64,000 bases of DNA, from assembly GCA_037140715.1 (NCBI GenBank), contig JBAXDX010000001.1:8000-71999 (forward strand), in the 5' to 3' direction. The notes below the pieces were generated by a model. The model was not told the DNA's origin, searched no databases, and saw nothing but the letters and a program-made list of their open reading frames with translations. The stretch comes from Ignavibacteria bacterium. Lineage in GTDB: Bacteria; Bacteroidota; Ignavibacteria; Ignavibacteriales; SURF-24. Every line of letters begins with the position of its first letter. Position 1 is the first letter of the stretch. A program made the translations under genes and the position numbers. Of this stretch, positions 5,643 through 61,474 are shown one piece after another.

Positions 5643-7514
5643 TTATTTTCTTTTATTATTCTTCTGCTGATCTAGCTTCTGCGTGTGCGCGTTTTTTTCG
5701 GCGGCTTCCATCATGCGATGCATAAATCCGCCCGATTTCTTCGGATTTGCAACCGGTACAAGTTCCATGTCATTTTTCGAATTATTAACATAGTACTGCT
5801 GAATGATCGAGAACAAATTGAACATGAAATAATAAAGATTAAGTCCGGATGGAAATCCCATAAACATAAGCGTAAACATAACAGGCATAATATAAACAAG
5901 AGCCGCCTGACTTGGATCCTTAACGCTCATCTTCTGCTGGAAGTACATTGTAATGCCAAGCAACAAGGCAAGTCCGCTCACCTGTTGAATGCCAAAAATT
6001 GGAATAGCGAATGGCAGAGTAAAAATAACATCGGGAGAAGACAGGTTAGTTATCCAAAGCGTAAAGGGTTGTTGCCTGAGTTCGATTGCAACGTTAAACA
6101 ATCCCCACAAAGCTACAAGTATCGGCATCTGGAGCAACATTGGCAAACATCCGCCCGCCGGATTAATTCCGTAGGTGGAGTAAAGCTTCATTGTTTCTTT
6201 GTTTACTTTCTGCGGATCGTCTTTGAATTTTTCCTTTAACTCTGTAATCTTCGGCTGAAGCTGTTGCATTTTCTTCATCGACTTAAAGCTACTTTTTGTA
6301 AAAGGATAAAGAGCAAACTTAATTATAAGCGAGAATACAATGATTACAATGCCATAGTTAGAGATAAACAAGTGCAGGAACCCGAATAACGGCAGAAGCA
6401 CATATTCTGATATTGGTCTGATAATTATCTTTAAGCCGAAGAGACTCCCAAAATCGACAATCTTTTCAAAGTTCTTACCGTAAGCTTTAAGTACGCTATA
6501 ATCAACGGGACCGATATAAATTAAAAATGAATTAGTTTGAATGCTTGTATTGTTAAAAGGAACCTTAAGCCCTGCGCTGTAATACTTTCTGACACCAAGA
6601 TCGTTGCCTGCATGCTTTTCAGTTCCTTCGATGTATGCGCCGCCTTCGTTGCCAGGGTTTTGGGGAGCGATAATTACTGCAAAATATTTATTTCTGATAC
6701 CGATCCAATCTACTTTGCCGTTAATTTCTTTTTTTGCCGGTTCATTGACCTTAACATTAACAATTACCTGTTCATCGCCCGAATAAGCGCTGGAGTTTGA
6801 GTAAGTTGCTTCATCTACTGAGTTCTTCTCAACGAAATTAATTCCATTAGCCCAGACAAGGTTGTAGTTATCATTGCTTATGATCTTTTCCATATTATTC
6901 ATCTGAACATCGCAGCGAACGGCGTAGTCGTTGCCTTTGAATACAAAGTTCTTTGTAATCGAGCTATTCTCATATACGCCAACGCTATATTTAAGAACGA
7001 GTGAATCAGCGTTGTTTAGCTTATAATAGTTTTTATCAAGATTTGAATTAAAGGAGGCATCAGCCGTATTAAGAAGCTTTCCATCCTTTGTAACAAAGGC
7101 CAGGTTCAAATCGCCTTCATCTGAGTTAATGAGATCGATATGCTGAGTGTAAAAATTATCTTTATTCTTTGGAAGATATGCGTACCATGTCTGATATTTC
7201 TTAAGAAACCATCTTCTTATTTTAGCTCCCTTGCTTGTCATTTCAAGCTTAACAAGATTATTTTCAATAGTAATAACCTGTTCCTTTTCCTGAGATGAAG
7301 AGAAAGCGCTACCTATGGATGAAGAATCAGAAGAAATATTATTCTGAGCGGGAACGTTGCCGGTATTCGGTTTTGAAGTCTGGTTGTTTGTTCTGACCAG
7401 AGTAGAATCGGCCATTTTTTTTATAGCTGGTTGTGGTTCGGGCGAGTTAAAATAAAGCCATATAATAAGTATAGCTCCAATTAAGACGAAAGCAATAGTT
7501 GTCTGTTTATCCAT
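5643..7514 (-). CDS. yidC: membrane protein insertase YidC
   Basis: 623 aa with an N-terminal TM helix, a large periplasmic domain and the conserved C-terminal 5-TM core (..PMLLQMPILVALW..). It sits in the rnpA-yidD-yidC context. Confidence 0.95.
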   Translation of the reverse strand: MDKQTTIAFVLIGAILIIWLYFNSPEPQPAIKKMADSTLVRTNNQTSKPNTGNVPAQNNISSDSSSIGSAFSSSQEKEQVITIENNLVKLEMTSKGAKIRRWFLKKYQTWYAYLPKNKDNFYTQHIDLINSDEGDLNLAFVTKDGKLLNTADASFNSNLDKNYYKLNNADSLVLKYSVGVYENSSITKNFVFKGNDYAVRCDVQMNNMEKIISNDNYNLVWANGINFVEKNSVDEATYSNSSAYSGDEQVIVNVKVNEPAKKEINGKVDWIGIRNKYFAVIIAPQNPGNEGGAYIEGTEKHAGNDLGVRKYYSAGLKVPFNNTSIQTNSFLIYIGPVDYSVLKAYGKNFEKIVDFGSLFGLKIIIRPISEYVLLPLFGFLHLFISNYGIVIIVFSLIIKFALYPFTKSSFKSMKKMQQLQPKITELKEKFKDDPQKVNKETMKLYSTYGINPAGGCLPMLLQMPILVALWGLFNVAIELRQQPFTLWITNLSSPDVIFTLPFAIPIFGIQQVSGLALLLGITMYFQQKMSVKDPSQAALVYIMPVMFTLMFMGFPSGLNLYYFMFNLFSIIQQYYVNNSKNDMELVPVANPKKSGGFMHRMMEAAEKNAHTQKLDQQKNNKRK

Positions 7515-7528
7515 TTAAATTCCTGAGA

Positions 7529-7738
7529 TTAGTCTAATGGGTCAAATCCCCCCTTATTGAAGGGATTACATCTTAAAATCCGCCAAATTGATTTTATACT
7601 GCCTTTGAGAACTCCGTATTTGGTAAATGCCAGAAGACTGTATTGTGAACAGGAGGGATAAAACCTGCAAGAGGGCGGAAAAAGCGGAGAAATAAATTTT
7701 TGATATAGCCTGATAATGAAAACAAAAACATGTCGCAT
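7529..7738 (-). CDS. yidD: membrane protein insertion efficiency factor YidD
   Basis: 69 aa carrying the [10 protein letters not shown] ... RCNPF..GG.DP signature. It lies between rnpA and yidC. Confidence 0.9.
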
Positions 7739-8136
7739 TATAAACTGCCATTTATTTTCTTTAGAAGATCAGTAAGTGCAGGCATAATATCAACAAGCTT
7801 AATAAGCTTATTTTTTATCTGGCTTAAATTGCCGGGAGAAAATACAATACGCACAAAAAACTTTTCCTCCTTATTATTTAAGTCAATTAAATGCTTGTTT
7901 AACCGGAAAGATTCCCTGATCAGGCGCTTAACTCTGTTTCTCCAAACAGCATTGCCTGCCCTTTTAGAAACTGCCGCGGCAATTTTAATCTTTCCTTCTC
8001 CGGCATTTCCCTCAATAATATAGACAGCTTTAAGTTTCTGATTGCCAGAGTAAGCTGTCTTTCCTGCTGAGTAAATTAACTTAAAGTCCTTTTCACTTTT
8101 GATTCTTTCATCTTTAGAAAGACCAAATTTTTTCAA
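7738..8136 (-). CDS. rnpA: ribonuclease P protein component
   Basis: 132-aa basic protein with the AV.RNR.KR..RE motif ([16 protein letters not shown]), directly downstream of rpmH. Apparent TTG start. Confidence 0.9.
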
Positions 8137-19226: not shown

Positions 19227-21863
19227 TCATAATCCAAAGCCCTGCATGGAAGGAATAAAAATAAATTCCAGTTTCCCTTTATCTCCGAGCGTTACCTTTA
19301 TTACAGTTCCATCAGTCTGGTTATCTCTAAGGAGAATCTGCGAGAGAGGATTTATCAGATAACTCTGTATAGTGCGCTTTAACGGTCTGGCTCCATAGGT
19401 TATGTTATAGCCTATTTCCGCCAGCCAGTCTTTAGCTTCGTTATCTATTTCAATCTTCAGATTTTTTGACTTAAGCAATCCGGTTACATGTTCGAGCTGA
19501 ATGTCCACAATCTCTCTAATCTCCGACTTGAGTAATGGCTTAAATAGTACTATCTCATCAACCCTGTTCAGGAATTCAGGGCGTATAGTTTTCCTCAGCA
19601 ATTCCGCAAGCTGTACCCGGAGGTTATCAAGAACGAATGGAAGCTCCTCTTCTGTTGTATTCTCCAGCTTATCCTGTATAATGTGCGAACCAAGGTTGGA
19701 TGTCATTATAATTATAGTATTTTTGAAATTTACAGTTCTGCCCTGATTGTCTGTAAGGCGGCCATCATCAAGCACCTGAAGCAAAATATTAAAGATGTCC
19801 GAATGAGCCTTTTCGATTTCATCCAGCAATACCACAGAATAGGGACGGCGTCTTACGGCTTCGGTCAACTGTCCGCCCTCTTCATAGCCCACATAACCCG
19901 GAGGCGCTCCGATAAGACGTGAGACGGAGAACTTTTCCATATACTCGCTCATGTCAATTCTGACCATTGCATGCTCATCATCGAAAAGAAAGTCGGCGAG
20001 GGCGCGTGCAAGTTCCGTTTTACCTACGCCCGTTGTACCGAGAAAGATAAAAGAACCGACAGGCTTATTAACGTCCTGAAGTCCGGTACGGCTTCTGCGG
20101 ATTGCATTTGACACGGCTGAGACAGCCTCATTCTGTCCGATTATTCTACGGTGAAGTTCCTCTTCCATTCTAAGAAGTTTGCTTCGTTCGCTCTCAAGCA
20201 TTCTGCTGACCGGAATGCCTGTCCATTTGCCCACTACTTCAGCGATATCCTCGGCATCGACTTCCTCTTTGAGCATTCTGTGCTGTTTCTGAATTTCTGC
20301 AAGTCCGAGTGATTCCTGCTTAAGTTTTTTCTCCAGCGAAGCTATTGTACCATAACGCAGTTCAGCGACCCTGCCAAGATCACCAGTACGCTCATACTGT
20401 TCCGACTGAAGTCTGGCAGTTTCGATATCGCTTTTCATTTTCCGAATGATCTGGATTTTATTTTTCTCGAGATGCCAGTGAATTTTAAGTTCCTTACGCT
20501 CATCGCTAAGACCGCGCAACTCACGGCTGAGGTCTTCAAGTCTTTTAGAATTATCATGGTCACGTTCGAGGGCAACCTTCTCAATTTCGAGCTGTTTAAT
20601 TTTTCTTTCCACCGCATCAAGTTCCTCGGGCATCGAGTCAATTTCAATTCTGAGTTTTGAAGCCGCTTCATCGATCAGGTCAATTGCCTTATCAGGCAGG
20701 AACCTGTCGGCGATATATCTGGCAGAAAGCTGAACAGCAGCAACAATAGCGGAGTCAGTAATACGCACGCCGTGGTGGACTTCATATCTTTCCTTGAGAC
20801 CGCGCAATATTGAGACAGCGTCTTCTTCGCCTGGTTCACCAACGAGCACAGGCTGGAAGCGGCGTTCAAGGGCGGCATCTTTCTCGATATACTTTTTATA
20901 TTCGTTTAATGTTGTCGCACCGATTGCATGCAGTTCGCCCCTTGCGAGGGCAGGCTTTAAGATATTTGCCGCATCCATTGAGCCTTGCGCGGCTCCGGCC
21001 CCAACCAGAGTGTGAAGTTCATCGATAAACAATATTATTTCGCCATTTGAATCCTGCACCTCTTTTATAACAGCTTTTAGTCTTTCCTCAAACTGTCCAC
21101 GGAACTGCGCACCGGCAACGAGTGCGCCTAAATCAAGGGCTATAATTTTCTTTGTCTTTAAGTTTTCGGGCACATCTCCGCTTATTATTCTGTGGGCAAT
21201 GCCTTCGGCAATGGCTGTTTTGCCAACTCCGGGTTCGCCTATTAATACAGGATTATTTTTCGTGCGGCGGGAGAGTACCTGGAGGACACGCCTGATTTCC
21301 TCATCACGACCAATGACGGGATCAAGCTTTCCTGTACGGGTAAGTTCATTTAAGTCACGCCCGTATTTTTTTAGTGACTGGTAAGTATCCTCCTGGTTCT
21401 GTGAAGTTACGCGCTGACTGCCACGAATATCCTTAAGGGCTGTAAGGATGGAATCTCTTGTAACACCATTATCGCGTATTAACTGCCCTGCCCTGCCGTC
21501 ATTAGCCACCATTGCAAGAAGCAGGTGCTCAGTTGATACAAATTCGTCCTTAAGCTTCTGTGCCTCATCGGTTGCCGCATCCAGTAAGCGGCCGGTTGTC
21601 TGCGACAGCTGCTGATTGCCGGCTCCGGCACCTGAGACCTTTGGCAGACGCTCGAGAAGTTCGTTTACTTTAAGTTTTATATGGTTAAGGTTTACCTCTG
21701 TTTTCCTCAGGAAGGAAACAGCAATACTATTATCATCCTGAATCATCGCGGCAAACAAATGTTCCGGTTCGACAATCTGGTTATTATAGTTTTGCGCAAT
21801 ATCCATTGCATTTTGAATAATTTCCTGCGCTTTTACTGTAAGTTTGTTTAAATTAAAAGCCAT
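19227..21863 (-). CDS. clpB: ATP-dependent chaperone ClpB
   Basis: Two AAA+ modules ([13 protein letters not shown]; [13 protein letters not shown]) separated by a long coiled-coil M-domain. ATG at 21863 is preceded by AGGTGAG; the ORF track extends to GTG at 21872. Confidence 0.96.
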
Positions 21864-21893
21864 AATTCTCACCTGTTAATCAAAGATTATTAC

Positions 21894-22214
21894 TTAAAAA
21901 TCTAGAATAAAATAACGGAAGGTACCTAAAAGTGCATATAGTGCATTTAAAATTCTTTTTCTTCCTCGCCCGAAACAGAAATCTCGTATATTCTCAAATT
22001 TATCACCTACAGCGGTTTTCCATGCTTCTTTCTCTTTTTGCTGCAATCCGGTTTTTGCATATTTATTAAGCGCACCTCTTAAACTTTTATTTACGGGAAC
22101 TGTTTTCACGCCAACTGCTTTCGGCTCCGGATTTTCCTCGCCTTCAAAAATTATAATTTCAACCATCCGTCCCTTATATTTTTCCAGTTCCTTTATCTTC
22201 ACTACGTTGTTCAT
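21894..22214 (-). CDS. hypothetical small protein upstream of clpB
   Basis: 106-aa ORF in the same orientation as clpB. No family recognised and the C-terminal third looks non-protein-like. Confidence 0.3.
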   Translation of the reverse strand: MNNVVKIKELEKYKGRMVEIIIFEGEENPEPKAVGVKTVPVNKSLRGALNKYAKTGLQQKEKEAWKTAVGDKFENIRDFCFGRGRKRILNALYALLGTFRYFILDF

Positions 22215-22331
22215 ATTGTAAACTTAACCTATACATTGATTATTTGCAAATCTTACAATATATTTTTGTAAGCGACTGAGCATCTGCCATTAAATCAGTT
22301 AATATTCACATTATCAGGCAGAAGAACCCAC

Positions 22332-23021
22332 AAATTTCGACCGCGAAACTGTTTGAATTCACCCCATACGAAAAAATTTCATCCCACAGCTATAATTTCC
22401 AGGCAATTGGACAGGCGCAACGGCCGCACAGCTTTAAATTTCGACCGCATACATATAAAATTTGACCGCATTGATTCTAAAATTCACTGCATTGAAAGAC
22501 GCGGCGGCCGTATGGATATAATTTTCCGCCGTTTGGATATAATTTTTCTTCGTTTTGATTCCGGCGGAGTTCGTTTTGCTCCCGGCTGAGAATGTTTCGT
22601 ATAAAATTTCATCTGCAGTGAGTGCGTCCGGCTTTGTTTCGATATAAAATTCAGCTGCTGCGACAGTAAATTGAAATGCTGTGCTGTAAAACAAAACCGT
22701 TTTACTTATAAATTTATTTTTTATGCTGTAAATTGAAAATGTTTCATGCCTGTTTAAAAATGTTTTAGTTCCGGCAAAGAATGATATGCCGGAAAGCGGA
22801 TTCGTTTTTGTAAAAGCAGACTTCGTTTTTCAAAAAACAGCACTTGTTTTGACAAAAAAAATCTTCGTTTTTAAAGATGCGGCGACTGCGATAGAATAAA
22901 TTTTTCTCGTTTTTGAAAAAAATGGATTCGTTTTTACAAAAGTAAACTCCGTTTTAACAGATGCAGCACGCGTTTTAGTAGAAATTCACTCCGTTTAGAT
23001 GTGAATTCGGATGATGAAAGG
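22332..23021. repeat. degenerate tandem array with strict 21-bp phase (about 33 units)
   Basis: CGTTT(T/G/A) starts at 22530, 22551, 22572, 22698, 22803, 22824, 22866, 22908, 22929, 22950, 22971 and 22992, all equal to 22530 + 21n. Related TGTTT/CGCAT/TGCTG cores fill other phase positions back to 22341. A/T runs alternate with the cores. Confidence 0.8.
22983..23021 (+). repeat. left copy of 39-bp direct repeat bounding the defence islet
   Basis: AATTCACTCCGTTTAGATGTGAATTCGGATGATGAAAGG matches 28318-28356 at 38/39 positions. Confidence 0.9.
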
Positions 23022-23068
23022 CATTTATAAATATATAGATTATAATTATTCCTGCTCTAAAAACCAGT

Positions 23069-23112
23069 AAAAATAATTGTCGTCAAACGATAGTTCTAAA
23101 TGCCGCTAATCA
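23069..23112 (+). repeat. left copy of 44-bp direct repeat (inner pair)
   Basis: AAAAATAATTGTCGTCAAACGATAGTTCTAAATGCCGCTAATCA matches 26923-26966 at 40/44 positions. Confidence 0.85.
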
Positions 23113-23753
23113 GAATCTGAATGCCCTTTTTGTCCTCCGGTCGGATGCCTGCTTTTTTCTTTTGTGTTTTTCGGAAAATGATGATTCATAACATCACCTG
23201 ATGGCGGAAGACTGCTGTTATGGCCGTCTGAATGTAACACCGGCTCTGATTTCTTCAACCGCTCATCAGGTATTTCTATTTTTAATTCCGGCTCAATGAT
23301 ATAACTGATTACGGACTCACGACCCTGATTTATGTCTTTCTGTCAGATTTATCATGGGGTTCTGTATATCAAGTTTTACTTTAATATGCAGGACATGTCT
23401 TATTATTTTATAACATTTTTTTATTTATGCTGAGTAGTTACATTTTTTTGTATATTTAATGAAAGAAAAAGTTCTGCAAAGTTTTATCAGATTAAACGAT
23501 ATAATGAAATTCATAAATTTATTAGTTTATAAGTTCAACTATCTATAAAAGTAAGGATTTACGAAAATATATAAAATTTTATCGCCAGTAGATTACAATA
23601 CGATTACTCATTTTAAGCAATATGGAGCAAAAAACATGAGTATATAATAGAAAAATGATTTTTTAGTTGCTTTTGAATACTACATATTAAAATATAGAAA
23701 GTATGAGCAGAAATCGTACTGGATTTTATTAACTAAAATGATAAGACTAACAA

Positions 23754-24854
23754 ATGAATTATTATGAAAAAATTAGAGAATTGACAAGAAACGTTCCAAC
23801 AACATTAGTGGACTTTAATTTACGTAGAGAACCGGCAAGAACGCCAACTCAGGCGTCTTCAAATTTTATAACAAACAAAGAACAAGGGGACTGGGCAGAA
23901 TATCTTATCTTCCGCGCAATTAATGAAACATCAAAGAATTTTGTAGCTGTAAAATATGGTAAATCAGATAATCTTGTCGCCGGCGAAGAAGGATTTGATA
24001 CTTTTTATCAATCTTTTCAAGAAGAACTTGATTCCATAGGTAAACGACCAGATTTATTAATATTTAAGAAAACTGATTTTGATGATAAGCTGGGAGTCAA
24101 CATTAGCAATATTCCATATCACCAAATTACAGAGTATGTTAAAAAAGCTATTGCCGGAATTGAGGTCAGGTCAAGCTCTTTTTTAATTGACCAGTACGAA
24201 GCTGAAATGCAATCGCGAACAGAACGGTTTACGAGAATTGCTTTAGAGCTCAGAGACAACATATTATCTGAATATCATGATATCCTTAATGTTTCACCAC
24301 GACAGAAATACATTTCCGTTTTAGAAGGTATTTCTAACGAAACTCTTAGTATTACGGATTTTAAAGTCCCTGGGTGGAAATCTTCGGACAGGCTTGTTCA
24401 ACTAAATAATCAGTTTAAGAACCTAAAAAAAGCAATTAAGGAAATTCAAAAGAGGGATTATCTTTCCATAACTCCCAAAGTAGAAGACATCAAAGTTGTT
24501 TATAAATGGATTGAAACTTTCAATGTACCTCATTTTTATTTCCAGGTTTTTTTTGATAAAGTCTATGGCATTTCCTTTGAGCATATTCTTGAAATAATAT
24601 CAGATACTGACAATGACGGCGTAATATTTTCAGTAGAAACAGATACAAAAAATCAAAATAAAACGACCATAAAAATAAATTCAAAAACCGGGGTTCAAAT
24701 AGCTTATAAGGTTGACGAACCAGACCATAAGAGTGTAAGAAAAGAAATAGAGCGGGGCAGATTGCTTTTTTATGTAAGCTTTAATGGAGGAACCGCTTAT
24801 TTAGATGTAGATAACCTAAAAAATATTTTAACACTAAGCGAAGAAGAATTTTAA
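23754..24854 (+). CDS. putative type II restriction endonuclease (PD-(D/E)xK-like)
   Basis: 366 aa. It contains ..KRPDLLIF.. followed about 35 aa later by ..GIEVRSS.., a PD...ExK/R-like nuclease core. Its stop overlaps the ATG of the adjacent methyltransferase by 1 nt (TAATG). Confidence 0.55.
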
Positions 24855-26452
24855 TGGCGTATATAAATGTAAATAATATTTCCGATGAAGTTGAACGAGA
24901 ATATTCGGCTTCCACGCCTGTTGAACATAGAAAAAAATACGCTCAGTTTTTTACCCCGCCGATTATTGCTGATCTGATGGCGACATGGATTATCGGAAAT
25001 AAGAAATTGGAAGTTGTTCTGGAGCCGGCTTTTGGGCTTGGCATTTTTTCGAGAACTCTACTTAATAAAAAGTCCGGTATAATAATTAACGGGTTTGAAG
25101 TTGACAAGAAAATCTATCAAAAATCATTAGACTTATATAAAAATGAAAAGAATATTTCTATTCAGTTCAAAGATTATATGTATAATGATTGGGAAAATAA
25201 ATACGATGGCATTATGTGTAATCCTCCATACTTCAAATTCCACGACTATGATAACAAGAATATTCTTAATGAGATAGAAGAAAAAACATCTTATAAACTC
25301 AACGGGTTTACAAATTTATATGCTCTTTTTCTTCTAAAGTCTATTTACCAGCTAAATGAGAACGGCAGAGCGGCTTATATTATTCCCTCAGAACTTTTGA
25401 ATTCTGACTATGGTAAAAAAGTAAAAAAATATTTAGTAGAAACTAAAACGCTAAGACATGTAATCATAATAGATTTCGAAGAAAACGTTTTTGATGGCGC
25501 ATTAACAACCGCATCTATACTCTTATTCGCAAATGATGATGAAGCTGCCAGCGTTCAATTTCATAATATTAAAAATGTCACCGCTCTTCACCCAATAAAA
25601 AAAATAATAGATGAATATCCGGACAATAAAACAAATTTATGTTCTATAAAAATTGAAGAGCTTAAACCAGCAATTAAGTGGCGGGCTTATTATCAGGAAC
25701 AAAATTATAAAAAATATAAACACTTCGTGCCATTTGGAACTTATGGAAAAGTAGTAAGAGGAATAGCAACCGGCGCAAATGAATATTTTACCTTTAATCC
25801 ATCGAAGGCAAAACAGTTCGGTATAAATCAGAAGTATTTATTGCCCTGTATATGTAAGTCTGTCGATATTAAGGGTTCTTTTTTTACAGAAATAGAATTT
25901 GAACAATTACAGAAAAATAATAAACACGCGTTACTTCTTAATGCTATCAACCCGATAGATGACTCTGTAAGGAAGTATATTTCAATAGGAGAAAAAGACG
26001 GGATAGATAAAAAGTTCCTGACTTCTCATAGAAATCCCTGGTATGCTTTAGAGAATAGACTGCCTGCGCCTATCCTGGTATCTGTTTTTAATAGAAACGG
26101 ATTGCGGTTTATTAGAAATGAAGCAGGTATCTCAAATCTTACAACCTTTCACTGTATGTATATAAACAAATACTTCATTCATAAAACAGACTTGCTCTTT
26201 GCTTATCTGCTTACCGATATTTCAAAAGAAATATTCGGAGATAACCGCAGAGAATATGGCAATGGTCTTCAAAAATATGAGCCGAATGATATAAATGGAG
26301 CAAAAATATTGGACTTAGAATTGATTGACTCCAAAATAGAAAAAGTAATACTGCAACTATTCAATAGTTATAGGGAATCAGTTCTAAACCGGCAGCCAAA
26401 TGATAATTATATCAAAGAAATAGAGACTCATCTTTTGAAAATCTTCTGCTAA
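24854..26452 (+). CDS. gamma-class N6-adenine DNA methyltransferase (TaqI/Eco57I-like)
   Basis: 532 aa with the order QFFTPP (motif X), LEPAFGLG (motif I) and CNPPYF (motif IV NPPY), then a long C-terminal target-recognition region. Confidence 0.9.
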   Translation: MAYINVNNISDEVEREYSASTPVEHRKKYAQFFTPPIIADLMATWIIGNKKLEVVLEPAFGLGIFSRTLLNKKSGIIINGFEVDKKIYQKSLDLYKNEKNISIQFKDYMYNDWENKYDGIMCNPPYFKFHDYDNKNILNEIEEKTSYKLNGFTNLYALFLLKSIYQLNENGRAAYIIPSELLNSDYGKKVKKYLVETKTLRHVIIIDFEENVFDGALTTASILLFANDDEAASVQFHNIKNVTALHPIKKIIDEYPDNKTNLCSIKIEELKPAIKWRAYYQEQNYKKYKHFVPFGTYGKVVRGIATGANEYFTFNPSKAKQFGINQKYLLPCICKSVDIKGSFFTEIEFEQLQKNNKHALLLNAINPIDDSVRKYISIGEKDGIDKKFLTSHRNPWYALENRLPAPILVSVFNRNGLRFIRNEAGISNLTTFHCMYINKYFIHKTDLLFAYLLTDISKEIFGDNRREYGNGLQKYEPNDINGAKILDLELIDSKIEKVILQLFNSYRESVLNRQPNDNYIKEIETHLLKIFC

Positions 26453-26666
26453 GAAACTCATCGTTTCGCTATATCCAAATCATACTCAGGTTTGTAAATA
26501 TTTTTGTATAGCTGAGGAAAACAAACATCAGATGAATATGTTTTTTTTGCTCCAGCAGAGATAAGAGCGCTGCCCTCCTTGCCTATATTAGTGAGACAAA
26601 AAATACAGATAAAATAAGACTGAGGGTAAAGGAGAGAATAAAGTGATAAGTCATAGTGTAAATACC

Positions 26667-26720
26667 GAAACATCTGAAACGGAAGGATCCCGAAGGGCGG
26701 GTGGAGTTTCAGATGTTTCA
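26667..26720. repeat. perfect 14-bp inverted repeat, 26-nt GC-rich loop
   Basis: GAAACATCTGAAAC (26667-26680) pairs with GTTTCAGATGTTTC (26707-26720). Confidence 0.7.
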
Positions 26721-26922
26721 TCGCAAAAAAAAGCAGTCCCGGATTCAGAGGTAAAAGTACCGGTAAGATGCCCCAGGTATATAGAGAACTTTAAGCAGGA
26801 AGTCCTGAAACATGTCTGTGAATTACGAGGGGGTTATAGAAACACAACTAATTTTATTCATATGATTTACTTTGTGGCGGGTAAATTAAAGTATGATTAC
26901 CCACTATAAACAACATAGACCC

Positions 26923-26966
26923 AAAAATAATTGTCGTCAACCGGTAATTCTAAATGTCGCTAATCA
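26923..26966 (+). repeat. right copy of 44-bp direct repeat (inner pair)
   Basis: Matches 23069-23112 at 40/44 positions. It lies 12 nt beyond the stop of the macrodomain gene. Confidence 0.85.
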
Positions 26967-26977
26967 AATTGTAAAAG

Positions 26978-28021
26978 CTAATAATTGTATAAGTAATTTT
27001 GGAATTCTTTTAATCGCGCATAAGTAACCTTAATATATTCAGGCTTCATTATGTTTCTTTTTCTTTCATTCCATTCATATACTTTTGTTACCGCAGCTTC
27101 GTAATTGTCCAATAATGAAGGGTCTTCATTAATTACGAAATCAACTGTTGACAGCAATTCCATGCCAAAAGGAAATTCAAACCCTTCGATTAATGAATAA
27201 ACCTTTTCTAATCTGTCTTTTTGTTCATCAGAGCAATTTTCATTTGTAAATAAATCAACAACAGACAGCATTTCTTTTTTAAGAGTGATACAATCAAAAG
27301 GTTTTGCATCCTTAAATTTCATTCCGTCAAGATAAGTCCCGTCCATATCGCTTAATACATGAACTAATTTACCGGCATAGGGACCATAAAGATTTCTTTG
27401 ATAATCCAGTCGAAGATTTTCGCCAAATCTTTGAAGAAAATAGACTAATTTTTGAGCTTCAAGCAAAGTAAGGTCTGTCCGATAACGGTTTAGAATCATA
27501 AGAACTAATGCTCTGACCTTAGTCAGTTTGGGAGGTCTCGCATTTATCAGAATATTATTATAAGCACTTTCTGAAGGCTCGTATATTATTACATCAAGGT
27601 CTTCAATACCAGACATATTATTTAGAATTATCTGCTTCACTTCGTCCCAGTTTAACCCTCCGTTACCACATCCTAAAGGCGGAATGGCAACAGACTTTAT
27701 TGAGTAATTTTTAATTACTTCTTTAAGATTAACAAGCCCGGTTTCAATATAATCAATTTTAGACGGGTTCCTCCAATGTTTCTTGGTGGGAAAATTGATT
27801 ATATATCGTGGTTTAGTAATCTGTGTGGTTTCTGTTACAAACATTTTACCGATGTCAAGCTTATTGGTTTTAGCGGCATTTTCATAAAGTTTAAAGTTAT
27901 AAGGATACATCTTCTTAAATTGAATAGCTATTCCCTTGCCCATAACCCCCATAGTATTTATGGTATTTACGATTGCATCGGTTTCGGACTCTAATATATT
28001 TCCTTTCACAAATCGTATCAT
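26978..28021 (-). CDS. darG: macrodomain protein, DarG-like antitoxin (ADP-ribosyl-DNA glycohydrolase family)
   Basis: The N-terminal macrodomain (MIRFVKGNILESETDAIVNTINTMGVMGKGIAIQFK...YIINFPTKKHWRNPSK...IPPLGCGNGGLNW) closely follows the DarG macrodomain pattern as I recall it from M. tuberculosis and Thermus. There is a ~190-aa helical C-terminal domain (..EAQKLVYFLQ..YGPY..). The ATG at 28021 overlaps the upstream stub's stop by 1 nt. Confidence 0.75.
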   Translation of the reverse strand: MIRFVKGNILESETDAIVNTINTMGVMGKGIAIQFKKMYPYNFKLYENAAKTNKLDIGKMFVTETTQITKPRYIINFPTKKHWRNPSKIDYIETGLVNLKEVIKNYSIKSVAIPPLGCGNGGLNWDEVKQIILNNMSGIEDLDVIIYEPSESAYNNILINARPPKLTKVRALVLMILNRYRTDLTLLEAQKLVYFLQRFGENLRLDYQRNLYGPYAGKLVHVLSDMDGTYLDGMKFKDAKPFDCITLKKEMLSVVDLFTNENCSDEQKDRLEKVYSLIEGFEFPFGMELLSTVDFVINEDPSLLDNYEAAVTKVYEWNERKRNIMKPEYIKVTYARLKEFQNYLYNY

Positions 28022-28269
28022 TAAAAATACCACCTTTCTTGTTTTTTGACTATTATTTTTAGTCCCGTTTTTCCTGCTTCTTTTTCAATGTAATTTAGCA
28101 TTTTATCATTATAAGAAGCAATGCCCGATATAGAGTTTGCCGGGAAGCAGGAGAATTTAAGAGTTTCCAGTAGCTGCCCGTAAAACCCCGGTACCTGTTT
28201 TTGTCCGGAGAGCCGCACAGAGCAAAGAAACAGGACTGCCATGAACGGCAGAGACGGGCAGTAATTCAC
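28021..28269 (-). pseudogene. darT: 5'-truncated darT-like (DUF4433) toxin remnant
   Basis: The 82-codon ORF ends ..LLETLKFSCFPANSISGIASYND...KKQERWYF*. This resembles the DarT C-terminus (..AEFLV..P...I..I.V...WYY). The frame is closed by a stop at 28321-28323 inside the right direct repeat, so at most about 100 codons exist versus about 200-230 for DarT. The N-terminal NAD-binding half is missing. Confidence 0.5.
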
Positions 28270-28317
28270 TTCAAAGCTGAAAGGCAGGAATAATTTCAGG
28301 GATAAAAGTAATGAAAT

Positions 28318-28356
28318 AATTCACTCCGTTTAGATGTGAATTCGGATGATTAAAGG
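28318..28356 (+). repeat. right copy of 39-bp direct repeat bounding the defence islet
   Basis: AATTCACTCCGTTTAGATGTGAATTCGGATGATTAAAGG matches 22983-23021 at 38/39 positions. Confidence 0.9.
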
Positions 28357-28372
28357 GAATTTGCTACGCACT

Positions 28373-29611
28373 CTAATAATGAGACGAAAACAGTTCGAAA
28401 TATTTCCGGCTCATATCTTTAAGCGAAAAATTCTCCGCGGCATAAGCGCGTGCGCTGCCGGATAATTCCTGCAGACGGGTTTCATCGAACAACAACCGGA
28501 CGGTTTTTTCTGCGAAGTCATTTAAATCAAAAGGCTTAATCAGGCGGCCTGAGATATTATCTTTAATAATTTCACCGCAGCCACCTATATCAAAAGTAAT
28601 AGCCGGAGTTCCGCATGAGACTGCCTCTACAAGAGCGTTCGACAGATTATCCGCCTTCGTTGGAAAGACAAGCATATCGGCAGCCGAAAGACACAGGCGC
28701 ATCTTCACTTCATCCTGAACATAACCTGCGCTGTGAATGCGGAAATTCTTCAGCTCAGATATTTCCTCTATTTCTCCAAGTCCCAGTATCAGCAGGTGAA
28801 TCTCAGTTTTAGCCATTGAGCCGATTAATTTCAGAATCTGAATAAGGTCGCGTCCTCCTTTGTAAATATTCTTGCTGAGCTTTTCGGCGCTAAACATAAG
28901 CGTTTTTGCTTCACGCGGAATATTAAGCTCTTCGCGCGCCCGCGCCTTATCCATAGGAGAAAAAATCTCCAAATCAAGTCCGTTAAAAATATGACGCACC
29001 TCGCGGCCTTCAAGCACGGGGCTTTGTATGGCAAGGTTGTAAAGCCATTTGGAAGGAGCAACGAAACTGACATTGGAAGCTGCGTATATACGCTTTTTCT
29101 GTCTTAAAAGAAAACTCCCCGTGTTAATGCCGAGCGCGGGGAAAGATTTGGCATTCGAACGGCTGTTTTTCATTTCTTTCCATGATTCATCTCCGAAAGT
29201 ATGGGCAGAGTTGCCTGTGAATGTCCACATATCGTGCATTGTCCAGACAATAGGGGCTTGTTTCGAGAGTTCAGCAATCATCGGTGTTTCAAAATATCCG
29301 CCCAATGTGTTATGCAGACTTATGATATCAGGTTTTAGCTCCTTAACTTTTTGCCTGATTATCTTAGGTGATACGGGCAGGTACTGATACTGAAGTCCTA
29401 ATGCATTGGAGAAGACATTAAACCAGCGCTCAAAGGACTGGTCGAAGCCGTTTTGACGCGTGGCAAATACATTGGGTTTGTCGGAACGTTTGGTCCTTAC
29501 TACAAAATAGTTATCAGTATGGCAATATTTTTCCAGTCCGCTGCCCAGCCGGGTAGCTGCAATAGCCGATCCGCCTATTACATCCGATATGTTTATGAAT
29601 AGTATCTTCAA
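28373..29611 (-). CDS. family 4 glycosyltransferase (GT-B)
   Basis: 412 aa with N-terminal MKILFIN..GG and a C-terminal E..G....EA...G.P motif (LVEAVSCGTPAITFDIGGCGEII). Confidence 0.85.
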   Translation of the reverse strand: MKILFINISDVIGGSAIAATRLGSGLEKYCHTDNYFVVRTKRSDKPNVFATRQNGFDQSFERWFNVFSNALGLQYQYLPVSPKIIRQKVKELKPDIISLHNTLGGYFETPMIAELSKQAPIVWTMHDMWTFTGNSAHTFGDESWKEMKNSRSNAKSFPALGINTGSFLLRQKKRIYAASNVSFVAPSKWLYNLAIQSPVLEGREVRHIFNGLDLEIFSPMDKARAREELNIPREAKTLMFSAEKLSKNIYKGGRDLIQILKLIGSMAKTEIHLLILGLGEIEEISELKNFRIHSAGYVQDEVKMRLCLSAADMLVFPTKADNLSNALVEAVSCGTPAITFDIGGCGEIIKDNISGRLIKPFDLNDFAEKTVRLLFDETRLQELSGSARAYAAENFSLKDMSRKYFELFSSHY

Positions 29612-57481: not shown

Positions 57482-58900
57482 ATGTTAATAACTATGAATA
57501 TTACTGAAATTTCAAGCAACAATTCCAAAATGATTTGGAAAGAATGCTTAAAAATCATAAAAGAAAATGTCCCTTACATGACCTATAACACATGGTTTCT
57601 TCCTATAAAGCCAATCCTTCTGAACGGACAGTCGCTTAAAATACAGGTTCCGAACAATTTCTTTATCGAGTGGATTGACGGACACTATAATACTTTAATA
57701 AACAAGACTATCCACCAGGTTATTGGACTGGAAGCTGAACTTGTCTATATAATATCAGATGAAAATGATATACCTGAAATTGAACTTAGACGTGAAGAAC
57801 CCAGCCGCCATGAACCTGTTCAGACTGCAGTCATCGAAAAAGAGATTAAAAACGATAAACCTGAATTTGAAACATATCTTAATCAAAAATATACATTTGA
57901 TAACTTCATTAAAGGTGATGGCAACCAGCTTGCAAGAGCCGCCGCATTTGCTATTAGTGAAAATCCAGGTGAAACTTCTTTTAATCCCCTTTTTATTTAT
58001 GGTGGCGTAGGACTTGGCAAGACTCATCTTATTCAGGCAATCGGTAATAAAATTTTGAGTAATTATCCTCATAAAAGAGTTATCTATCTGTCGAGTGATA
58101 TATTTACTGTTGAATTTGTTGAAGCTGTACAAGCTAACAAGGTAAATGAGTTTTCAAATTTTTACAAAAAAATGGACGCGCTTATAATAGATGATATTCA
58201 ATTCCTTATAAATAAGGAAAAAACTCAGGACTTGTTCTTTAATATTTTTAATATACTTCACCAGTCCGGCAAACAAATCATTCTTTCAAGCGACAAACCC
58301 CCAAAAGACTTAAAAGGTCTAAATGAACGCCTTATATCCAGATTTCAATGGGGACTGTCAGCGGATATTCAGCCACCTGATTATGAAACGCGTTTTGCCA
58401 TATTAAAGAAAAAGAGCGAAAACTATGGAATTTATTTATCTCCTGATATATTGGAATATATAGCTATAAATATTACATCCAACATCAGGGAACTGGAAGG
58501 CTGTCTGATAAAGCTTCTGGCGAATACATCGCTTAGTTCCAAGGAAATTAATCTGGAAATGGCTAAAAAGACAGTTAAAGAGATAGCCACAGACAGAAAG
58601 GTAAATATTTCAATAGAATATATTACTAAAGTTGTCTGTGAGTGCATGAATGTAGAAGAAAACAAGGTCCGCGAAAAAAACAGAAAACAGGAAGTAGTAC
58701 TTGCACGGCAAATAGCAATGTACTTATCTAAAAAACTAACCAAGTCTTCGCTGAAAACCATTGGTCTTCACTTTGGCGGAAGGGATCATTCTACCGTTAT
58801 ACATGCATGTAATAATATTGAAGTTCTGTCAAATGAAGATATTGCGCTAAAAGACGTACTCGAATCTATCAGAAATAAGATTGAACTTAGCGTTGCTTAG
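57482..58900 (+). CDS. dnaA: chromosomal replication initiator DnaA
   Basis: 472 aa with the AAA+ Walker A GGVGLGKTHL, ..IDDIQF.., and the C-terminal DNA-binding domain ..GGRDHSTVIHA.. The start may be the Met at 57494. Confidence 0.97.
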   Translation: MLITMNITEISSNNSKMIWKECLKIIKENVPYMTYNTWFLPIKPILLNGQSLKIQVPNNFFIEWIDGHYNTLINKTIHQVIGLEAELVYIISDENDIPEIELRREEPSRHEPVQTAVIEKEIKNDKPEFETYLNQKYTFDNFIKGDGNQLARAAAFAISENPGETSFNPLFIYGGVGLGKTHLIQAIGNKILSNYPHKRVIYLSSDIFTVEFVEAVQANKVNEFSNFYKKMDALIIDDIQFLINKEKTQDLFFNIFNILHQSGKQIILSSDKPPKDLKGLNERLISRFQWGLSADIQPPDYETRFAILKKKSENYGIYLSPDILEYIAINITSNIRELEGCLIKLLANTSLSSKEINLEMAKKTVKEIATDRKVNISIEYITKVVCECMNVEENKVREKNRKQEVVLARQIAMYLSKKLTKSSLKTIGLHFGGRDHSTVIHACNNIEVLSNEDIALKDVLESIRNKIELSVA

Positions 58901-58901
58901 A

Positions 58902-59141
58902 TGTGGATAACGTACATGGTAAGTGTTGGCTAATTGTTGTGTATGTACGTTTTCAGCTGACTATGTTGATATCATACTATATGGAAAGACTTATCCACAT
59001 TTAATAAAATCCAAAAGTTTGCAATACAGTTTATATTTGTGGCATTTTAAGTTATCAACATATTCACATCTTTATTAGATTTATTAAAAATTTTTAAAAA
59101 TAAATTAATATAATATAAATGAGTGTGTGGATTGTTGATAT
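58902..59141. promoter_or_regulatory. oriC part 2: DnaA boxes and AT-rich unwinding candidate between dnaA and dnaN
   Basis: Perfect boxes TGTGGATAA (58902-58910) and TTATCCACA (58991-58999). Near-boxes lie at 58964-58972, 59052-59060, 59126-59134 and 59133-59141. About 50 nt of almost pure A/T spans 59066-59120. Confidence 0.75.
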
Positions 59142-59220
59142 TCATAAGCGACGGAACATAATTCGCGTTGTATCTATATATAATTTTTGATATTTTGGCA
59201 TATCAATTTGGAAAATTAGA

Positions 59221-60354
59221 ATGGAATTTAAGGTAAATAGCAAATTACTCGAAAAGCTACTGACAAAGATAATCCCGGCAGTCCCTTCGCGTACTACGAT
59301 GCCAATATTGGAAAATTTCCTCTTCGAACTTAATGATGGTTTACTTACCATTTATGCCACAGACTTGGAAATTGCTCTCAAATCATCAATAAATGTTGTA
59401 GCTGAAGAAAATACAAAACTTGTGGTTCCCGCACGCCTTCTTTATGAAATAGTTCGCTCGCTTCAGGAAACTACTATTCTCTTTCAGGTCTCACCAAATG
59501 GCAAGACTAATCTTAAAACAGATAATGGTGTTTATACAATAAGTTATCTTTTGCCGGAAGGATTCCCTGATATCCCATCATTTCCTGAAAACAGCGAGGA
59601 TAGAGATAATATAGGCAAAATGCTAATCGGCGGACCGGAGCTAAAAAAAGCTATCGAGCAGACATCATTTGCAATGAGTAAAGAGGATATGCGTCCTGCT
59701 ATGATGGGCCTGTTACTGGAGTTTACAGACGAGGGTCTCCGTTTTGTCTCAACCGATGGGCACAGACTTGTAAACCTGCTTAAGAAAACAGTAAACATCG
59801 GCTTTAATGACCAGTATATTCTTCCGGATCGTGCTATATCTGTACTTATGAAAATATTGGAGGAGAAGGATGTTAAAATTCTTCTCAGCAATACTTATGT
59901 TTCGTTCAGGGCGGGAGATATTGAATTTATTACAAGGCTTATTGCTCAGAAATATCCTGACTACAGAAGCGTTATTCCATTTGAAAATGAAAATAGACTT
60001 AAAATAAAACCTGCTGATTTATTTTCTACAATTAAAAGAATGCTCCTTTTTTCTCCGGCTAATTCCAGAAAAGTAAAATTTTCCATTACTCAGAATAACC
60101 TGGAAGTATCATCCGAAGATATCGATATGGGATCTTTTGCCAGGGAAAATATTTACTGTGAATATTCAGGTGAACCTATGGATATAGGGTTTAATTCAAC
60201 TTATGTTAACGATGTGATAAGCCATCTGCAGAATGAAGATGAGATTGTCTTTAAACTTCATTCGCCTACTAAGGCTGTTATTATTGAACCGGTAATAAAT
60301 AAAGACAATGAAGAACTAATGATGTTGCTCATGCCTGTGCGCTTAAATAATTGA
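59221..60354 (+). CDS. dnaN: DNA polymerase III beta sliding clamp
   Basis: 377 aa with three-domain clamp length and motifs (..ATDLEIAL.., ..STDGHRL.., ..MPVRL at the C-terminus). In dnaA-dnaN-recF order. Confidence 0.97.
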   Translation: MEFKVNSKLLEKLLTKIIPAVPSRTTMPILENFLFELNDGLLTIYATDLEIALKSSINVVAEENTKLVVPARLLYEIVRSLQETTILFQVSPNGKTNLKTDNGVYTISYLLPEGFPDIPSFPENSEDRDNIGKMLIGGPELKKAIEQTSFAMSKEDMRPAMMGLLLEFTDEGLRFVSTDGHRLVNLLKKTVNIGFNDQYILPDRAISVLMKILEEKDVKILLSNTYVSFRAGDIEFITRLIAQKYPDYRSVIPFENENRLKIKPADLFSTIKRMLLFSPANSRKVKFSITQNNLEVSSEDIDMGSFARENIYCEYSGEPMDIGFNSTYVNDVISHLQNEDEIVFKLHSPTKAVIIEPVINKDNEELMMLLMPVRLNN

Positions 60355-60355
60355 A

Positions 60356-61474
60356 ATGGTATTAAAATCTTTACTGCTTAGAAATTTCAGAGTTTATCTA
60401 AATGCAAATATTGAATTTTCTGAAGGTATAAATTACATAGTAGGAGGAAACGGACAGGGCAAGACTACTATCCTGGAAGCCATCTATTTTTTGTGCACTA
60501 CAAAAGGGTATAATTCATTAACCGAAAGCGAAGTGGTGAACTTTAATAGTTCTTTTTTTGAAATCTCTGGCATTTTTAAGGATATTACTGAAAATTTTTT
60601 AAGAATTTATTATACCACTCAGGATAATAAGAAGTATTTTTTTGCAGATGGAAAACAAATCTATCGTGCCTCGAATATTATTGGTAAGTTTCCGGTTGTA
60701 ATCCTTACCCCTGAGGATCACAGTATTACACAGGGATCGCCGGCAGACAGACGGAAATTTGTCGATTCGGTAATTTCTCAGTCAAGTGAAACTTACCTGC
60801 AAATTCTCTTGGATTACAACCGTGTACTGCGCCAAAGAGCGTCACTCTTAACACAGTTTAAAGATTCCCGCGAAAAAAGTTTATTTGACCAGCTTGAAGC
60901 ATGGTCGCAAAGACTTGTTCAGACAGGTACTGAGATTATCAGGCACAGGATAAATTTCGTAAGAGAATTTAATGAATATGTTAAGAATTCGTATGACGTA
61001 ATTATGGAATCAAAGGAATATCCCTCGATTTCCTACGATTATCTTGATGGTCGCGATAAAAATAGTGGCGATATAGAAAATGAATTTCAGGCATTGCTGG
61101 AAAGAAAACGGGATGATGAAATAAGACGCGGTTCTAACTTAGTCGGTCCGCACAGGGACCAGTTTATGTTTTACATAAATTTGTATGATCTTAAAAAATA
61201 TGGTTCTCAGGGGCAGAACAAAACTTTTCAGATAAGTTTGAGGTTTGCTCAGTTCTTTTATTTGAAGGACTGTCTTGGGAAGACTCCAATTTTTCTTATG
61301 GATGATGTTTTTGGCGAACTTGATATGTTTCGCGCATCTAAAATCAGCCTGTATCTTAAAGACATTGGACAGGCTTTTGTAACGCTTACTGATTTTTCAA
61401 ATTTTTCATATTTAAACAGAACGGAAAGGGATTTCTTAATAAAAATAGATAATGGACGGGCGGAGTATGTTTGA
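60356..61474 (+). CDS. recF: DNA replication/repair protein RecF
   Basis: 372 aa with Walker A GGNGQGKTTILEA, the signature ..GSQGQNKT.. and Walker B ..IFLMDDV.. Confidence 0.95.
   Translation: MVLKSLLLRNFRVYLNANIEFSEGINYIVGGNGQGKTTILEAIYFLCTTKGYNSLTESEVVNFNSSFFEISGIFKDITENFLRIYYTTQDNKKYFFADGKQIYRASNIIGKFPVVILTPEDHSITQGSPADRRKFVDSVISQSSETYLQILLDYNRVLRQRASLLTQFKDSREKSLFDQLEAWSQRLVQTGTEIIRHRINFVREFNEYVKNSYDVIMESKEYPSISYDYLDGRDKNSGDIENEFQALLERKRDDEIRRGSNLVGPHRDQFMFYINLYDLKKYGSQGQNKTFQISLRFAQFFYLKDCLGKTPIFLMDDVFGELDMFRASKISLYLKDIGQAFVTLTDFSNFSYLNRTERDFLIKIDNGRAEYV

Follow-up and report, generated by a model that had tools for sequence, protein, structure and literature searches.

Does a complete antitoxin gene that follows a scrap of its partner toxin gene still belong to a working defence module and, if it does not, has it been left behind by decay or kept for a purpose of its own? 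The question is raised by a darG gene in a 64,000-nucleotide (nt) window of contig JBAXDX010000001.1 of an Ignavibacteria bacterium (GCA_037140715.1), a metagenome-assembled genome; all coordinates below are positions in this window, which belongs to a contig of 78,958 base pairs (bp). The results presented here establish that the locus is a new example of an already known kind of state, a DarTG2 module with a deleted toxin. Of darT, no more than 48 codons remain upstream of darG, joined to it by the usual stop/start overlap; 73 of the 80 loci that we compared carry a full darT in this place. The argument rests on three features:

26978..28021, minus strand: darG, encoding an intact 347-amino-acid (aa) antitoxin of the DarTG2 type (ATG at 28021, stop at 26978-26980), with profile, PDB and structure-model matches.
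28021..28167, minus strand: darT remnant, the last 48 codons plus TAA, starting at the catalytic Glu codon (GAA, 28167-28165) and ending in a stop that overlaps the darG ATG (TAATG).
28030..28035, minus strand: Shine-Dalgarno-like AGGTGG, 8 nt 5' of the darG ATG and within the darT remnant, read from the sequence.

The protein encoded by darG is intact, of the macrodomain (DarTG2) type and without sign of decay. It carries the motifs VNTINTMGVMGKGIAIQFK, INFPTKKHWRNPS and PPLGCGNGGLNW and matches the NCBIfam equivalog model antitoxin_DarG (NF048014) at 411.4 bits against a cut-off of 250, with residues 2-337 covering positions 1-338 of the 338 in the profile. The PADLOC DarG model (3.8e-121, positions 1-327 of 329) and Pfam Macro (1.4e-23) match as well, and the scores of MacroD/YmdB-like models lie far under their cut-offs. 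A mechanical list of open reading frames (ORFs) extends the gene to a GTG at 28033; both the homologues and the source annotation start at MIRFVKGN, with the ATG at 28021. The macrodomain occupies residues 1-150 and the putative DarT-binding C-terminal domain residues ~165-340. In comparisons against PDB, residues 1-151 match the DarG macrodomains of Mycobacterium tuberculosis (5m3i, 2.3e-52) and Thermus aquaticus (5m31/5m3e, 7.5e-51), and residues 184-336 correspond to 7yk3_B (4.4e-15), which is chain B of the M. tuberculosis DarT-DarG complex. An AlphaFold2 model (26 homologues) has a mean predicted local distance difference test score (pLDDT) of 89.5 and a disordered linker at residues 153-161. 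It superposes on DarG macrodomains with template modelling (TM) scores of 0.96-0.97 and root-mean-square deviations of 0.8-1.1 Å, and its C-terminal domain (~185 aa, mostly helical) on chains B and D of 7yk3 with TM scores of 0.80-0.81.

Conservation at the residue level is equally complete. DarG retains 72 of the 75 columns that are at least 90% conserved among 72 homologues from other species, and its three departures (V21I, L33I and A333T) are all conservative. Lys80 of FPTKKHW, reportedly the catalytic residue (Jankevicius et al. 2016), does not vary among the 26 homologues compared, and neither do the glycine-rich loops. The divergence of both domains lies inside the family range, the DarT-binding domain having diverged no further than expected from the macrodomain (z = +1.1). 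Judged by homology, DarG is predicted to have kept its ability to take ADP-ribose off thymidine in single-stranded DNA and, through its C-terminal domain, to bind a DarT; we infer that the gene is expressed and that the orphan antitoxin is probably still active. The original prediction, made from the sequence alone, had proposed a 347-aa protein with a DarG-pattern macrodomain and a helical C-terminal domain of ~190 aa, both of which these profile and structural matches bear out, and had named membership of a non-DarG macro family or lack of the C-terminal domain as what would speak against it; neither is the case.

Immediately upstream, an 82-codon ORF runs on the minus strand from GTG 28269 to TAA 28023-28021 and shares 1 nt with the darG ATG, an overlap that had been pointed out before and is read directly in the sequence. 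Its stop-to-stop frame comprises 99 codons and is closed upstream by TGA 28323-28321. The last 48 codons of this frame, hereafter the stub, are a real remnant of darT, and everything N-terminal of the catalytic Glu is gone. Three independent DarT profiles match the same residues up to the last profile column: NCBIfam NF048013 (E 0.0022, 17.7 bits against a cut-off of 150, positions 157-204 of 204), PADLOC DarT (E 0.0033, positions 152-196 of 196) and a family-specific profile that we built from 45 DarT proteins whose genes precede darG homologues (E 4.5e-5, 19.7 bits, positions 165-212 of 212). Among the six-frame stop-to-stop segments of the window, the stub was the sole significant match of the family-specific profile, and none of 200 shuffles of its 48 residues reached its score. 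Pfam DarT (PF14487, formerly DUF4433) gave no match at E <= 10 on either the 82-aa ORF or the 99-aa frame. A Pfam B_solenoid_dext match of the stub (E 0.07-0.09) was dismissed as spurious, and a phmmer search of the stub against PDB returned chance matches only, with enterotoxin B at E ~1.

The alignment of the stub begins at the Glu of the AEFLV motif (E-T-L in the stub) and ends on the WY[YF] terminus (WYF in the stub), as darT ends in intact loci. This Glu and the Leu that follows it are invariant in our DarT alignment (A3). The stub Glu falls in the profile column occupied by Ala in 7omv and 7yk3_A, two crystallised DarT proteins with a Glu-to-Ala mutation, which identifies it as the catalytic Glu. 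With 48 residues, the remnant represents 23% of the ~212-aa DarT, and ~77% of the coding sequence is gone. For the N-terminal NAD-binding/DNA-binding part (profile positions 1-164), all frames of the window and contig were without signal, and no DarT signal was found elsewhere in the window (six frames) or in the rest of the contig. Since its NAD-binding part is missing, the stub cannot work as a transferase, which rules out toxin-antitoxin or abortive-infection activity of the module. A functional DarTG2 system encodes both toxin and antitoxin, and only the antitoxin is encoded here.

The point at which darT is interrupted can be placed with the help of three further features:

28168..28317, minus strand: 150 nt of non-DarT DNA between the breakpoint and the repeat, containing the 5' part of the mechanical 82-codon ORF (GTG 28269).
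28236..28251, minus strand: terminator-like hairpin CTGCCGTTCATGGCAG with a T-rich tail after it, in the interval from the glycosyltransferase gene to the darT remnant.
28318..28356, no strand assigned: right copy of a 39-bp direct repeat (D3R), holding the TGA (28323-28321) that closes the stub frame.

HMMER run with filters off detected no DarT signal in any frame of 28168-28372. At the same place, GC content shifts from 33.2% in darG and 32.6% in the 48 codons to 47.3% in the 150-nt segment (core 50-58%). The breakpoint is therefore at ~28167, the Glu codon, ~150 nt inside the 39-bp repeat, with no evidence that links the truncation to that repeat. We also considered a longer, internally deleted remnant, for which MAFFT scattered the upstream 51 residues over the DarT motifs VPFYF, YLVS and FYN. 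We rejected it, since in a chain alignment with free profile deletions these 51 residues performed no better than shuffles (p = 0.27). The 150-nt segment has AT-rich sequence on both sides, the darT remnant and the repeat, and neither the window nor metagenome contigs nor Rfam yielded a relative of it. The source annotation places no gene between the glycosyltransferase gene and darG. The hairpin is the sole such site in 26400-28500, a count that is not above that of shuffles.

These results also revise what had been proposed for the toxin. The claim that darT was truncated exactly at the islet boundary is true of the mechanical frame only, whose closing stop does lie inside the right repeat as reported, and the suggested link between truncation and repeat is not supported, as unrelated, GC-richer DNA separates the two. 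What had been called the C-terminal third of DarT, catalytic Glu included, is indeed DarT-like from the Glu onwards, but it is shorter than a third. The HMM (hidden Markov model) search proposed as a check recovered Macro but not DUF4433, an outcome that had been named in advance as counting against the reading; the NCBIfam, PADLOC and family-specific profiles nevertheless match the stub, precisely at the profile positions to be expected. That the NAD-binding N-terminal half of the toxin cannot be encoded proved correct, and the overall picture of an orphan antitoxin beside a dead toxin is upheld by matches in four DarG/DarT profile libraries and in PDB, by a structure model of high confidence and by the sequence as read directly. 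A literature search on truncated or pseudogenised DarT found nothing specific.

To place the locus among its relatives, we took a census of 80 evaluable species-level darG loci, consisting of one genome per species and two metagenome loci. A full-length, ~212-aa darT lies directly upstream of darG in 73 of these. In the other seven (~9%) darT is truncated, interrupted or missing next to a full-length darG, a figure to be read with the provisos that the census took the best-scoring DarG matches, which by design leaves out decayed darG copies, and that an isolated lesion in a metagenome-assembled genome may be an assembly error. Three loci carry a 5'-truncated darT, with profile coverage from position 61 (L072), 114 (L061) and 130 (L057). 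One is frameshifted just before the AEFLV motif (L026, Chitinophagaceae), two have an in-frame stop 5-13 codons past the catalytic Glu (L027, Aulosira; L029, Okeania), and one lacks darT altogether (L019). Toxin-first decay is therefore recurrent. Anti-addiction, immunity and a repurposed hydrolase, the functions suggested in the original prediction, are hypothetical options, and because toxin-degraded darTG loci are fairly common, a plain snapshot of decay is the default reading of the locus studied here.

We accordingly consider it rather probable that the locus captures the ordinary, toxin-first decay of a DarTG2 module. Under this explanation, a DarTG2 toxin-antitoxin (phage-defence) module would have arrived by horizontal acquisition, a deletion or rearrangement would have taken the promoter-proximal ~164 codons of darT, and unrelated GC-richer DNA would have become joined to the catalytic-Glu codon. 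The surviving 48 codons also hold the ribosome-binding site of darG and the TAATG stop/start. The darG gene itself is intact and, with its cognate toxin gone, the module can no longer poison the cell or abort phage infection. A toxin-first order is to be expected, toxin loss being harmless and antitoxin-first loss lethal, and for this reason a transient, largely neutral stage of toxin-antitoxin decay in a defence islet appears most likely.

Several observations weigh against toxin-first decay, and some of them bear on the alternative that an orphan darG has been maintained by selection, either as chromosomal immunity or anti-addiction against DarTG2 carried by plasmids, phages and mobile elements, or as a DNA repair enzyme that reverses ADP-ribosylation. 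In 2,556 pairs of intact loci, the identity of the last 48 DarT columns rises with that of DarG (r = 0.64). The stub lies under this trend: it shares 25% identity with its nearest relatives, where ~40% would be expected from DarG divergence, and its mean residual (z = -2.7) is the lowest of 73, practically tied with that of one intact locus, which makes the excess divergence marginal. DarG, in turn, shows no relaxation in either domain by the measures given above, and a DarT-binding domain would be needless for a pure repair enzyme. A diverged stub next to a conserved DarG weakly fits an older toxin loss with selection on darG. Moreover, the DarG enzyme reverses the product of the toxin, so that any incoming DarT2-type toxin could be neutralised. 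Stand-alone DarG-like enzymes of phages neutralise DarT (AdfM, PMC13309987; AdfN, PMC11825919), the stand-alone bacterial macrodomain SCO6735 reverses thymidine ADP-ribosylation (PMC9411070), and the darG studied here shares a defence islet with a restriction-modification system. On the other side, the nearest DarG homologues are just 56-57% identical and all stand beside an intact 212-aa darT. The remnant frame is still open in 33%-GC DNA and ends exactly on the darG ATG, a weak hint of a recent event or of constraint from translational coupling. A sigma-70 scan, which may not cover the promoter type of this organism, found sites no more often than in shuffles and none convincing upstream of darG. 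Finally, a toxin-degraded rate of 9% is what simple decay would lead one to expect. The hints on age and selection are thus two, weak and opposed; we regard maintenance by selection as conceivable, since an enzymatic antitoxin acts on the product of any DarT2, but as clearly less likely than decay, and the more specific proposal that DarG is kept as general immunity or anti-addiction against incoming DarT2, with the ~9% of loci forming a functional class, as somewhat unlikely.

The locus is known from one genome only and the search for a second darT covered the 79-kb contig alone, which also counts against toxin-first decay and leaves room for an intact darT, or its missing half, elsewhere in the genome and controlled in trans by this darG. 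The intact DarT-binding domain would suit such an arrangement, but no DarT signal exists in the window or the remaining contig and a split arrangement would be atypical, given how regularly darT lies directly upstream of darG in the census; we consider it improbable. An artefact, whether an assembly chimera at the repeat or a chance resemblance of 48 residues to DarT, is more improbable still. The 39-bp repeat does break an independent k=31 assembly of the same run, in which the two contigs (L004 and L086) overlap by exactly 30 nt, because the 33-nt exact repeat core is at least as long as k = 31. The breakpoint at ~28167, however, is separated from the repeat by 150 nt and falls within one k=31 contig (L004) that is identical to the k=141 contig across 26900-28350, breakpoint included, and an assembly chimera at this point is therefore unlikely. 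As for chance, Pfam DarT does not match and the E-values of the curated models are just ~0.002-0.003; against this stand the agreement of three independent profiles up to the end of DarT, the invariant Glu, the W-Y-[YF] terminus and the shuffling result. Toxin-first decay of a DarTG2 module remains our preferred explanation.

The surroundings of the module are those of a small acquired defence islet. Its features, in addition to those listed above, are the following:

22983..23021, no strand assigned: left copy of the 39-bp direct repeat (D3L), the final unit of a 21-nt periodic array.
23022..28317, no strand assigned: AT-rich islet with a restriction-modification system and darT'-darG, between the clpB side and the glycosyltransferase gene, of low GC content and flanked by the 39-bp direct repeats.
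23069..23116, no strand assigned: left copy of a second direct repeat (D2L; ~47 nt, ~90% identical), 42-47 nt inside D3L.
23754..24854, plus strand: AccI-type restriction endonuclease gene (Pfam RE_AccI, 679 bits, full length).
24854..26452, plus strand: N6-adenine DNA methyltransferase (Eco57I-type), the partner of the endonuclease (Pfam N6_Mtase 1.5e-17, Eco57I 1.5e-15).
26923..26969, no strand assigned: right copy of the second direct repeat (D2R), just 3' of the darG stop.
28373-29611, minus strand: glycosyltransferase gene of a polysaccharide locus, neighbouring the islet.

The segment 23022-28317 is 5.3 kb long and has both properties of an integrated islet, flanking direct repeats and a deviating composition: GC content is 32-33% in the islet genes against 44.5-45.5% in the flanking clpB and glycosyltransferase genes. 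The two copies of the 39-bp repeat agree at 38 of 39 positions, where 0 such matches are expected by chance. The second repeat (D2) is nested within the first (D3) and encloses only the restriction-modification genes, in the order D3, 47 nt, D2, restriction-modification genes, D2, darG, darT', 150 nt, D3. This layout is compatible with, and suggests, two nested and successive cassette insertions. A recombinase gene is absent: no integrase, recombinase or transposase was found among the ORFs of 23022-28317, which besides the genes for the endonuclease and methyltransferase and darG include only small ones without family matches. No further D3 or D2 copies occur in the window. Searches of metagenome and viral contigs with the 39-bp repeat, D2 and the 150-nt segment returned 0 matches, revealing no empty site, intact ancestor or mobile element, and exact-protein look-ups for darG, the glycosyltransferase, the methyltransferase and an 88-aa ORF matched only in sample ERZ27300037 / SRR7053541.

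Within the islet, the methyltransferase ATG abuts the endonuclease stop. Two small ORFs of the source annotation have no Pfam family, the 88-aa ORF (26643-26909, plus strand) and one of 106 aa (21894-22214, minus strand) that lies just upstream of clpB and adjoins the 21-nt array. The array spans 22340-23011 with ~32 units in strict 21-nt register, each beginning YCGTTTT, CCGCA or CTGC; identity is 0.44, 0.42 and 0.42 at lags of 21, 42 and 63, against a background of ~0.28. It lies between the 106-aa ORF/clpB side and the islet and is not crossed by any ORF. Since the left 39-bp repeat is the last unit of the array, the islet looks inserted at the array's edge, and the two-helical-turn spacing suggests a candidate protein-binding array. 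Rfam gave no match over 21800-29000, a range that takes in both the array and the 150-nt segment. The k=31 Logan contigs of SRR7053541 (L004, L086 and L093) end at 23195, 26601, 26900 and 28321/28350; low coverage or strain variation may lie behind the breaks at 23195, 26601 and 26900, including the gap 26602-26899.

The contig carries rnpA, yidC, dnaA, dnaN, recF, gyrB and gyrA and therefore derives from the chromosome near the origin. In the window, rnpA and yidC are found at 5643-8136, and dnaA, dnaN and recF at or around 57482-61474; gyrB and gyrA lie beyond it. The islet is thus chromosomal and ~30 kb away from the replication-origin gene cluster.

By itself the locus matters little: it is a well-documented case, from an uncultured Ignavibacteria genome, of DarTG2 decaying toxin-first as expected, and annotation should list it as darG with a darT pseudogene fragment rather than as a working defence system. 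Descriptions of orphan antitoxins in bacterial genomes are said to be rare (PMC11825919). DarG, an enzymatic antitoxin, is easy to recognise, and the census suggests that intact darG next to degraded or absent darT is not rare and is amenable to systematic survey. An enzymatic orphan antitoxin could cross-protect against any DarT2. Should selection on the orphan turn out to be the right reading, the ~9% of darG loci whose darT is dead or missing would constitute a functional class and not debris.

Compared with known systems, the locus is closest to the DarTG2 modules of T. aquaticus, M. tuberculosis and Escherichia coli (5M31/5M3E, 5M3I, 7OMV and 7YK3). It shares with them the two-domain architecture of DarG, a macrodomain that is 50-53% identical (TM 0.96-0.97) and keeps the FPTKKHW context of Lys80, a C-terminal domain matching the DarT-binding domain of 7YK3, and the common gene order of darT followed by darG with a stop/start overlap. 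According to the account of Deep et al. 2023 cited in PMC13309987, and to 7YK3, the C-terminal domain of DarG binds and blocks DarT. The difference lies in darT, here reduced to its last 48 codons, with no NAD-binding part and no toxin.

DarG-type enzymes that remove ADP-ribose without a cognate toxin are also known from phages, and the orphan DarG resembles AdfM, a stand-alone DarG2-like macrodomain that counters DarTG2 (PMC13309987), and by analogy AdfN, a NADAR orphan antitoxin directed against DarTG1 (PMC11825919). Unlike phage AdfM, the darG studied here is chromosomal, keeps its DarT-binding domain and retains a darT remnant. Of 342 phage records with a match to this DarG, only two cover at least 80% of it, the others being macrodomain-only; the two near-full-length matches, C-terminal domain included, are Thermus phage phiMa (MH673674.1) and MT837167.1. 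Retention of the C-terminal domain, unlike in the phage proteins, therefore points to a former toxin-antitoxin partner and not to a dedicated counter-defence gene. The stand-alone macrodomain hydrolases SCO6735 (Streptomyces coelicolor) and TARG1 (human) reverse thymidine-linked DNA ADP-ribosylation (PMC9411070, PMC8501950). They belong to the same macrodomain clade (TARG1 at E 7e-6 by sequence, TMt 0.85-0.89 by fold) and are likewise found without DarT; they differ from the DarG studied here in having neither the DarG C-terminal domain nor an adjacent trace of darT.

The closest parallels in evolutionary terms come from cases in which the toxin is inactivated first and the antitoxin persists, where it could neutralise incoming homologous toxins. 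Mine et al. reportedly described such decay for ccdO157 of E. coli in 2009, and the anti-addiction model is said to go back to Saavedra De Bast et al. in 2008. The antitoxins of ccdO157-type cases are of type II and act by binding, whereas DarG also acts enzymatically on the product of its toxin, so that cross-protection by an orphan DarG would need no specific binding.

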